A DNA stretch of 7,574 bases. Source: a virus (taxonomy: Duplodnaviria; Heunggongvirae; Uroviricota; Caudoviricetes). Below, piece after piece: positions 2,054 to 3,039 of this stretch. Below the pieces are notes generated by a model. The model saw only the letters and a list, made by a program, of their open reading frames with translations. It was not told the origin of the DNA and did not search any database. The position numbers and the translations under genes were made by a program. Position 1 is the stretch's first letter; each line of letters begins with the position of its first letter. The stretch lies in IMG/VR virus record IMGVR_UViG_2645727991_000009, one strand, 5' to 3'.

Positions 2054-2192
2054 GCAGAATATTTTGCTGAAAAATGAGGTTTGCTTACATGGATGGATAA
2101 CACGAAATCCTGCAAATTGGCAAAATGTAAGTGAATAAAGTCAAAACAGTTGTTTAACACTCAGGCACCGTAATGATGCCTTTGTCATTTCT

Positions 2193-2214
2193 GCGCATCT
2201 CACGCGCATCTCAC
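2193..2214. repeat. Perfect tandem direct repeat, 2 x 11 bp (GCGCATCTCAC), in the leader of the antirepressor-like gene
   Basis: GCGCATCTCAC occurs at 2193-2203 and again at 2204-2214. It lies in the ~270-bp non-coding gap between the endolysin stop and the ATG at 2324, near a 5-bp inverted repeat AATGA-N8-TCATT at about 2172-2189. Confidence 0.5.
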
Positions 2215-2323
2215 AACACAGAACCTTTCAGGATGACCCTTGAGGATACCGGTTTGGCTGTCGGTGCCTTTCTGTGGGCTGGATTCCTGTGAGACAAGGT
2301 TCATCACTAAAAGGAAATAACCG

Positions 2324-2893
2324 ATGAATATGATGGCCGTGCCGTTTCACGGCAACTCTCTTTATGTAGTTAACCATAATGGCGAACCATACGTTCCCAT
2401 GAAACCTGTCGTTGCGGGGATGGGGCTGGCCTGGCAATCACAGTTGGCTAAGTTAAGACAGCGTTTTGCGTCAACTATAACGGAAATCGTTATGGTTGCT
2501 GAGGATGGGAAACAACGCAATATGGTGTCCATGCCACTTCGAAAACTTGCCGGCTGGCTACAAACCATTAATCCCAACAAAGTAAAACCCGAAATCCGCG
2601 ATAAGGTCATCCGGTATCAGGAAGAGTGCGACGATGTTCTTTACGAGTACTGGACGAAGGGTTTTGTCGTTAATCCCCGTAAAATGAGCGTGATGGAAGA
2701 ACTCAACCAGGCTTGTGCTGACATGAAACGGGATAAAAACATTGCCAGTGTGTTTGCTACCGGGCTGAATGAGTGGAAACAGGTTAAAGCCGCGCATGTA
2801 TCAAAAATCCGTACGCTGGTAAATGAAGCGAATATGCTGATTGATTTTGTCCTGGCTGATACAGGCAAAGGGAAAATAACAAAGGCGGATTGA
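2324..2893 (+). CDS. Phage antirepressor-like protein (P22 antirepressor N-terminal domain family)
   Basis: AAGGAA SD lies 7 nt before the ATG. The N-terminal motifs VPFHGNSLYVVNHNGEPYVPMKPVVAGMGLAWQSQLAKL and PLRKLAGWLQTINPNKVKPEIRDKVIRYQEECDDVLYEYWT match what I recall of P22_AR_N-type Ant proteins. A gene of this kind between R and Rz is, as I recall, common in E. coli lambdoid and Stx prophages. Confidence 0.75.
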   Translation: MNMMAVPFHGNSLYVVNHNGEPYVPMKPVVAGMGLAWQSQLAKLRQRFASTITEIVMVAEDGKQRNMVSMPLRKLAGWLQTINPNKVKPEIRDKVIRYQEECDDVLYEYWTKGFVVNPRKMSVMEELNQACADMKRDKNIASVFATGLNEWKQVKAAHVSKIRTLVNEANMLIDFVLADTGKGKITKAD

Positions 2894-3039
2894 TGGGGTG
2901 GCTAATGATATCAGATAAACTCATAACGCTGGTGAAGAGCCTCTGTGTACTTGTCGGCATTTCATTTTTAGTCATGCTGGTTGCCATTTTCTTTTCCACC
3001 GCCTGGCGAGTCCTGACGTTATCGGGACTGGTGGGGTGA
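2893..3039 (+). CDS. Possible small single-pass membrane protein (about 48 aa), translationally coupled to the antirepressor-like gene
   Basis: The ATG overlaps the upstream TGA (TGATG) and the ORF ends just before the Rz RBS. The predicted product [48 protein letters not shown] has one long hydrophobic stretch. It is below the track's length cut-off, and my reading and the track differ by one base here, so frame and coordinates are uncertain. Confidence 0.3.

Follow-up and report, generated by a model that had tools for sequence, protein, structure and literature searches.

A conserved structured leader precedes an ant-like gene and other passenger genes in the late operons of lambdoid prophages

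The viral stretch IMGVR_UViG_2645727991_000009 from IMG/VR (7,574 nucleotides (nt), hereafter called the window) covers the start of the late operon of a lambdoid Escherichia coli prophage and is 99.3% identical to the chromosome of E. coli FORC_042. Between its endolysin and spanin genes lies a segment (positions 2054-3039) that an initial annotation, made from the nucleotide sequence without database searches, had described as an antirepressor-like module with its own leader and a coupled small membrane open reading frame (ORF). All the elements of that description, including the gap of about 270 bp and the placement between R and Rz/Rz1, were found where it had put them. The segment and its boundaries comprise the following features (SAR, signal-arrest-release; Stx, Shiga toxin; MFE, minimum free energy; aa, amino acids).

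1520-2053, + strand: lysozyme R, SAR-type, with a hydrophobic SAR-like N-terminus (Pfam Phage_lysozyme, 1.5e-24); upstream boundary of the insert
2054-2147, + strand: R-proximal spacer, 82-95% conserved in ant-less Stx phages and E. coli genomes, and thus backbone rather than cassette
2163-2190, + strand: terminator-like hairpin (AGGCA 2163-2167 / TGCCT 2177-2181) followed by a T-rich run (MFE fold)
2192-2208, + strand: leader hairpin P1, UGCGC/GCGCA, 2192-2196 with 2204-2208 (4 of 5 pairs changed on both sides; 93% of alignment cells paired)
2209-2223, + strand: C/A-rich single-stranded linker (unpaired in MFE folds)
2224-2314, + strand: long imperfect leader hairpin (MFE folds and covariation)
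2324-2893, + strand: ant, 189 aa, a Bro-network protein with P22_AR_N and ORF11CD3 (Pfam)
2893-3039, + strand: 48-aa single-pass hydrophobic ORF, PHROG 4906; its start ATG (2893) and the ant stop have one A in common (TGATG)
3047-3514, + strand: Rz i-spanin (Pfam Phage_lysis, 1.5e-39); downstream boundary of the segment
3267-3473, + strand: Rz1 o-spanin, embedded in Rz (Pfam Rz1, 6.9e-21)

The proposed insertion between endolysin and spanins is borne out by relatives that lack the segment. Stx2_EH2201 and other phages share R (the lysozyme annotated as endolysin R in Stx phages) and Rz but have no ant; in Stx2_EH2201 the first ~94 nt after R are common with the window and are followed by a terminator, a small ORF and Rz. 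The GC content of the ant segment is 0.44-0.48 versus 0.53-0.60 in the flanks. The segment thus behaves as a moron with regard to presence and absence between conserved neighbors, but a consensus scan, weak evidence as such, showed no promoter of its own, and its terminator-like hairpin is upstream of the gene and not downstream. The gap itself (2054-2323, 270 nt) contains only short unconserved ORFs.

The segment is widespread and has been annotated many times. Region 2054-3046 is found at 99.9% identity in VT2-Sakai, VT1-Sakai, BP-4795, Min27, the PA-series phages and about 100 further phage records, and a second allele (~90.7% identity) is present in another ~130 phage records. At a query coverage of at least 80%, 693 of the 5426 complete E. 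coli genomes contain the segment, in up to nine places per genome. Phage records label the gene 'ant' or 'antirepressor', to which one Stx1 phage record (AP005153) adds the note 'regulation of host cell lysis'; RefSeq/PGAP has a 'phage antirepressor N-terminal domain-containing protein' followed by a 'hypothetical protein' (WP_000539792.1, the small ORF), and the corresponding PHROG families are 524 and 4906. The pair of ant and small ORF is therefore a very common, already annotated feature of Stx-type prophage lysis cassettes. The literature searched yielded no functional study of this ant gene, and a survey of Stx phage genomes gives the Ant phams by domain only.

What sets the segment apart is the DNA in front of ant. 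A stretch of 135 nt within it (about 2192-2328) recurs at 84-93% identity before different genes in unrelated phages, such as a KilA-N gene located after the spanins of the P22-like SE1Spa and an HNH_3-AP2 gene in phage Dewey. A profile search (nhmmer) of the loci collected found this leader 38 times, always ending ~10 nt before an ATG, and twice each in phi191, POCJ13 and Lys8385Vzw, where it precedes both ant and rha. The leaders of Xenorhabdus, Hamiltonella and Serratia align with that of the window and display compensatory changes. The supposition of a dedicated leader thus stood, while its second half, that the gap might hold a transcript start, did not: a consensus scan for sigma-70-like promoters on the + strand between 1400 and 3600, which is weak evidence by nature, found none, and a conserved RNA structure is present instead.

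The conserved leader is ~140 nt long and begins with the short hairpin P1; a single-stranded stretch rich in C and A then leads to a long imperfect hairpin of ~90 nt. The base of the long hairpin is formed by CCUUU (2224-2228) and AAAGG (2310-2314), the latter overlapping the Shine-Dalgarno (SD) sequence AAGGA (2311-2315). In the window, the stem comprises 28 pairs and is broken by bulges and a 6-nt asymmetric loop. When 15 diverse copies were folded independently, MFE folding produced the same structure in 14. The linker of the window allele contains the heptamer CACAACA (2212-2218), which equals the C/A-rich GcvB R1 seed consensus as given in PMC4104026; as the heptamer is not conserved in other leader alleles, it may be there by chance. 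A leader peptide was rejected because the 39-codon ORF at 2173-2292 and the ATG at 2233 are unconserved and leader indels are not multiples of three.

To evaluate the fold by comparison, a covariance model was built. The RNAalifold consensus of a MAFFT alignment recovered P1 only, owing to register shifts in that alignment, and the model was rebuilt from the MFE structure of the window. It identified 34 leader copies in the first 89 sources, with none near those P22_AR_N genes that have other C-termini. In this first alignment, standard pairs made up 89.5% of cells, while shuffled controls gave 78.4% and slid partners 35-48%; both sides had changed in 25 of the 32 pairs, and the covariation score was 0.455 versus 0.254 (0 of 500 shuffles). 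G.U pairs outnumbered A.C combinations 122 to 34, which places the structure in the sense-strand RNA. An alternative fold that leaves the SD free (GAACCUU/AAGGUUC, CAGGA/UCCUG) was rejected, with 70.7% of cells paired versus 65.5% in shuffled controls and 10 double changes where 9.7 were expected.

A scan of viral contigs with a single 15-mer from the 5′ arm of the leader returned at least 120 stretches, and 80 loci were used. These 80 contigs contain at least 83 full-length copies, up to three per contig, each of which ends ~10 nt before an ATG. Covariation was again above both controls in 72 distinct viral sequences, and the mean MFE z-score of the family was −3.1 (39 sampled copies). Taken over more than 100 instances and at least 10 genera, covariation is strong and the conserved fold of the leader is well supported.

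The leader does not correspond to an RNA family that we could find. Rfam 15, which includes C4, isrK, sar and AgvB/AsxR, gave no relevant match to the whole window at E<=1, nor to the window leader alone or a Xenorhabdus leader at E<=10. The small RNAs AsxR/AgvB and Pas were considered and rejected on account of their location: AsxR/AgvB map 3′ of stx, and Pas RNAs to the interval from the esterase to the holin gene. A small, limited literature search found no description of the leader, and the supplements of the Hfq-CRAC (cross-linking and analysis of cDNA) study of Tree et al. 2014 do not mention the locus. What is new here is thus the structured leader, absent from Rfam; the two ORFs are routine annotation.

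The genes that follow the leader are diverse. The domains in 65 distinct viral proteins among the matches listed were Phage_pRha (26), KilA-N (16), ORF11CD3 (16) and HNH_3 (7, with AP2 in 4) and, more rarely, P22_AR_N (3), TerB (3), P63C (3), Bro-N (2) and ANT (1). Upstream neighbors, comprising 87 distinct proteins among the matches listed, included spanins (Rz-type and other, ~26), Q antiterminators (~17) and endolysins (~12). Three slots recur: one behind Q, one that separates endolysin from spanin, and one past the spanins. All three are within the Q-dependent late transcript. Leader copies located just downstream of Q and tRNA genes precede TerB-family genes in FORC_042 (855-999, upstream of the window), where the TerB gene is a pseudogene, and at three further loci. 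As TerB is not a Bro-network protein, the range of leader cargo exceeds this network. In phage Dewey (2632-3183), the HNH_3-AP2 gene with its leader is directly followed by a KilA-N-ORF11CD3 gene; the HNH_3-AP2 architecture resembles that of homing endonucleases and hints at a mechanism by which the cassette could be mobilized.

In P22 itself (AB426868.1), the sole leader copy (39436-39589, 81 bits) lies upstream of rha, and none is found at the true ant/immI locus. The annotated rha start codons of P22 (39512) and of HK639 (1598; leader 1497-1642) are inside the leader, while the starts given by the model, at 39581 and 1634, are both preceded by an SD. The two coding sequences are therefore probably annotated too long.

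The leader has a recurrent upstream companion. A GC-rich hairpin with a T-run is located 0-20 nt upstream of P1 in 19 of the 21 copies examined, and the HK639 record annotates a 'terminator' at the corresponding place. The window hairpin escaped a consensus terminator scan because its loop is 9 nt long.

The Ant-like protein has two domains, P22_AR_N at residues 5-113 (E=1.4e-45), as the initial annotation had proposed, and ORF11CD3 at residues 122-164 (E=5.5e-6). Its resemblance to P22 Ant is partial. BLASTP aligns it with residues 10-136 of P22 Ant at 50% identity and finds no similarity past residue 136; P22 Ant is composed of P22_AR_N and P22_AR_C (200-272), and in the 189-aa window protein P22_AR_C is missing and ORF11CD3 occupies the position of the second domain. 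A Stx-phage Ant with experimental support exists in Phi24B, where a deletion mutant displayed reduced late-promoter activity. The Phi24B protein, however, resembles P22 Ant in its C-terminal 104 residues and is encoded upstream of the late terminator as an early gene, and is thus a different gene from the ant of the window. For these reasons (the partial match to P22 Ant, ORF11CD3 in place of P22_AR_C, and the separate identity of Phi24B ant), we file the window protein under the domain-shuffling Bro network and not under P22-type antirepressors.

This classification agrees with the distribution and predicted fold of the protein. Strong conservation of the ~188-aa architecture extends over 2581 database proteins, whose genera are Escherichia, Salmonella, Photorhabdus, Xenorhabdus, Serratia, Proteus, Providencia, Hamiltonella, Sodalis and Arsenophonus. 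Among relatives the domains are shuffled, with ORF11CD3 found behind P22_AR_N, Rha and KilA-N, and P22_AR_N combined with P22_AR_C or other C-termini. An AlphaFold model built with 18 homologs is confident for the N-domain alone (predicted local distance difference test, pLDDT, ~80; whole model 63), which is predicted to adopt a KilA-N/APSES/Bro-N-like DNA-binding fold matching the N-domain of baculovirus Orf22, Mbp1 and Bqt4. A sequence search of the PDB returned no relative and PADLOC no match. The antirepressor label of the initial annotation is consequently weak, as it rests on the N-terminal half of P22 Ant; judging by the modeled fold, the protein most likely regulates by binding DNA rather than by inactivating repressors in the manner of P22 Ant.

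Orthologs are located between endolysin and i-spanin also in Xenorhabdus bovienii, Hamiltonella defensa and Serratia, behind a gap of 170-220 nt, even though the holins, endolysins and spanins of these loci belong to different families than those of E. coli. This conserved position first pointed to lysis, and the wider survey showed it to be one of three slots used by such cassettes.

The small hydrophobic ORF of about 48 aa is present as described (2893-3039), its start overlapping the ant stop, and has a Kyte-Doolittle 19-residue maximum of 2.82 at residues 17-35. The initial annotation had thought it likely to be unannotated, which is mistaken: it is PGAP entry WP_000539792.1, a 'hypothetical protein' in phage records and a member of PHROG 4906. 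All its homologs (53 clusters at 68-100% identity) are from E. coli. Between two alleles that differ by ~25% at the DNA level, the frame remains open with an in-frame codon insertion, and the ratio of nonsynonymous to synonymous polymorphism (pN/pS) is 0.34-0.42. In phage Lys8385Vzw, the ORF follows an unrelated ANT-domain gene and has its own SD, whereas in Xenorhabdus and Serratia the orthologous ant genes are not followed by it. The ORF thus belongs to the Rz-proximal backbone of E. coli phages and travels with Rz rather than with ant, contrary to the notion that it is a part of the module; its translational coupling to ant in this allele is due to position only.

No Pfam match, and with it no profile match to a holin, antiholin or spanin family, and no similarity to Rz was found for the small ORF, by which its origin as a duplicated Rz membrane anchor was rejected, and the function of PHROG 4906 is unknown. 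By its sequence, it is probably a real, weakly constrained single-pass membrane peptide of the spanin end, for which a lysis-related role is possible. In Lys8385Vzw it is preceded by another small hydrophobic ORF (about 2167-2262, PHROG 6632), a relative of which also stands directly before Rz in the ant-less Stx2_EH2201 (2578-2796). Small membrane peptides before spanin genes (PHROGs 4906 and 6632) are seemingly a recurrent, unstudied feature.

The remainder of the window, assigned from the ORF listing and Pfam, contains the following genes.

To 755: SASA/NanS-p-type esterase, 3′ end; carries a DUF6645 domain
905-1120: P21-type class II holin
1125-1469: DUF1327/YdfR gene
4616-4981: HNH endonuclease
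5271-5834: small terminase subunit
5831-7483: large terminase subunit

The DUF1327/YdfR-family gene (PHROG 406, function unknown) is a second passenger of the lysis cassette, located in the interval between pinholin and SAR endolysin. Positions 756-904 correspond to the esterase-holin intergenic region, at which a 2026 preprint puts the prophage small RNAs PasA/PasC. Directly after Rz there is an ORF of PHROG 2571 (3538-3762, function unknown); the AT-rich stretch behind it (3960-4300) contains small hydrophobic ORFs, and past this stretch lies a YlcI/YnfO-family gene on the opposite strand (4389-4574).

Combining these findings, we propose, as the more probable account of the segment, a common late-operon cassette of lambdoid prophages that is composed of (i) a terminator-like hairpin, (ii) a leader that gates translation or processing, and (iii) a DNA-binding cargo of the Bro network. 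The cassette would be read from the Q-antiterminated late transcript. The terminator-like hairpin would stop any polymerase that is not modified by Q, and the gene product would then be made from the late transcript only. From its position before the ATG, we infer that the long hairpin limits or conditions translation or processing, either by occlusion of the ribosome-binding site or through RNase III cleavage of the long duplex, so that little protein would be made, or protein would be made under some condition only. Such a double lock would suit products that are harmful when mis-expressed; Rha reportedly does harm in hosts deficient in integration host factor (IHF), as cited in PMC4936722, and kilA was named for host killing. 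The leader may double as a homology block for cargo exchange, which would explain both the sharp break in similarity at the start codon and the presence of HNH-AP2 cargo. A bolder version of this proposal, possible and offered tentatively, is that the leader constitutes a new cis-regulatory class (a 'Bro leader') that makes the translation of otherwise toxic Bro-network proteins (Ant-N, Rha, KilA-N, Bro-N, HNH-AP2) dependent on an input from host or phage, for example RNase III, IHF-linked physiology or a small RNA, with its 3′ edge serving as the shuffling junction.

Several observations weigh against the cassette model. The window's own leader is ordinary in stability (z = −0.58), and the case for the leader is thus comparative and not thermodynamic. 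The two foot helices that touch the SD have the least support (72-75% of cells paired); the base helix pairs the GG of the SD in about 75% of cells. In MFE folds, the pairing of the SD is 0.53, the same as with the upstream sequence shuffled (0.53), so that these folds give no support to SD occlusion as the function under selection. Pair counts were made on alignments that had been fitted to the model structure. The terminator hairpin of the window is a weak allele, with GGCACC...GAUGCC in place of the GGCACC...GGUGCC of the second Stx allele (Stx2 phage 86, about 1310-1335). A limited literature search found no transcript, RNase III or translation data on the leader. Finally, the endolysin/spanin position is conserved in several genera and could still mean a role in lysis.

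The last point leads to an alternative in which the Ant-like protein, the 48-aa peptide or both are lysis accessories that tune the pinholin, SAR-endolysin or spanin pathway. The persistence of the endolysin/i-spanin position in E. coli, Xenorhabdus, Hamiltonella and Serratia next to non-homologous lysis proteins, the recurrence of small hydrophobic ORFs (PHROGs 4906 and 6632) directly upstream of Rz and the AP005153 note on host cell lysis all speak for it. The leader-plus-cargo cassette, however, is as frequent after the spanins or right after Q, phages with the same S, R and Rz genes exist that have no cassette, Pfam detects no membrane or peptidoglycan-related domain in the Ant-like protein, and the small ORF is restricted to E. 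coli, all of which makes a lysis function quite improbable. It is also unlikely that the protein is a true antirepressor, a reading raised by the initial annotation, which late in infection would bind and disable the CI-type repressors of other lambdoid prophages in the same cell. Targets would be available, since O157 genomes hold up to nine related places each, and the 50% identity to residues 10-136 of P22 Ant agrees with PHROG 524 and with the many records that carry the name 'anti-repressor Ant'. This name, however, is a transfer by similarity, P22_AR_C is missing, the domain that is retained is modeled with a KilA-N/APSES DNA-binding fold, and the Stx-phage Ant with a phenotype is an early gene product that shares the C-terminal part of P22 Ant. 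Moreover, Rha, KilA-N, HNH-AP2 and TerB genes share this leader and slot.

The leader could instead be mainly a junction at the DNA level, a homology block or homing site for the exchange of Bro-network genes, with the RNA fold being secondary. Such a junction would account for a single leader in front of nine or more unrelated cargo families, where the break falls at the start codon, the HNH_3-AP2 genes among the cargo resemble homing endonucleases, several contigs carry two or three copies, and between two Stx alleles the leader is 77.7% identical whereas the ant coding sequence is ~90.7% identical. Compensatory changes, however, preserve the helices across genera in which identity is too low for homologous recombination, and the excess of G.U over A.C is strand-specific, which is not expected of a DNA-level site. 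As the main explanation the junction is doubtful, although the DNA and RNA roles are compatible with each other. That the gap and small ORF are functionless leftovers of mosaic recombination would fit the ordinary stability of the window leader and the shortness, E. coli confinement and moderate constraint of the small ORF. For the leader, this neutral origin is already disfavored by the covariation that upholds its conserved fold in over 100 instances from at least 10 genera, and the small ORF, at ~25% nucleotide divergence and with an indel that is in frame, has remained free of stops and has a pN/pS below 0.45; we regard a neutral origin as highly improbable.

The cassette model relates the segment to several known systems. 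P22 Ant (immI) and the window protein have the N-terminal P22_AR_N in common, but the window gene has neither P22_AR_C, nor arc/mnt neighbors, nor an Rfam match to the sar antisense RNA, and is located in the lysis cassette of the late operon, whereas P22 ant is free of this leader. A closer parallel is the Bro network (Bro-N, KilA-N, Rha, ANT, P22_AR_N, ORF11CD3) as outlined in PMC10111431, in which a DNA-binding-type N-domain is combined with a swappable C-domain. The ORF11CD3 of the window protein is shared with Rha and KilA-N proteins that bear the same leader, and there is no defining difference; the common structured leader and the late-operon slots go beyond the network as it is known. 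The rha gene (orf201) of P22 and phi80 is described in PMC4936722 as a late-operon gene detrimental to phage growth in IHF-deficient hosts. Like the window ant, P22 rha has the leader upstream and a late-operon position near the lysis genes, and the Rha proteins of Stx phages have the same ORF11CD3 C-domain. Unlike it, Rha has Phage_pRha as its N-domain and rha follows the spanins, while the window ant precedes them.

RNA control of Bro-network genes has precedents in the c4 RNA of P1/P7 (icd-ant), the CI/seqA system of P4 and IsrK of Gifsy-1 (orf45-anrP), as listed in PMC10111431. In these systems, as we infer for the window, a Bro-type gene is checked post-transcriptionally by an RNA element adjacent to a terminator. 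The window element, however, is a hairpin in cis with no C4 or isrK match, and no separate antisense or trans RNA was identified in this analysis. Leader hairpins that are processed by RNase III are known from phage mRNAs such as the lambda N leader and the intercistronic sites of T7. By analogy, the long imperfect duplex with an asymmetric internal loop, its location directly before a cistron and the ribosome-binding site at its foot resemble these sites and may suggest similar processing, but there is no sequence relation.

Hundreds of E. coli genomes carry the leader, often in several copies each, and Shiga-toxin prophages are among its bearers. Through it, genes with unrelated names ('antirepressor', 'Rha', 'KilA', 'HNH endonuclease', 'TerB') form a single regulatory class. 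The leader corrects probable mis-annotations of start codons, such as that of P22 rha, and cautions that 'Ant' in the lysis cassettes of Stx phages should not be read as a repressor-inactivating function. The presence of the leader suggests that passengers of the late operon are under tight post-transcriptional control. If the 'Bro leader' version of the proposal is true, the leader would offer a molecular way into the Rha/IHF phenotype, which has been known for decades, and into the question of why Bro-network genes are found in lambdoid late operons.

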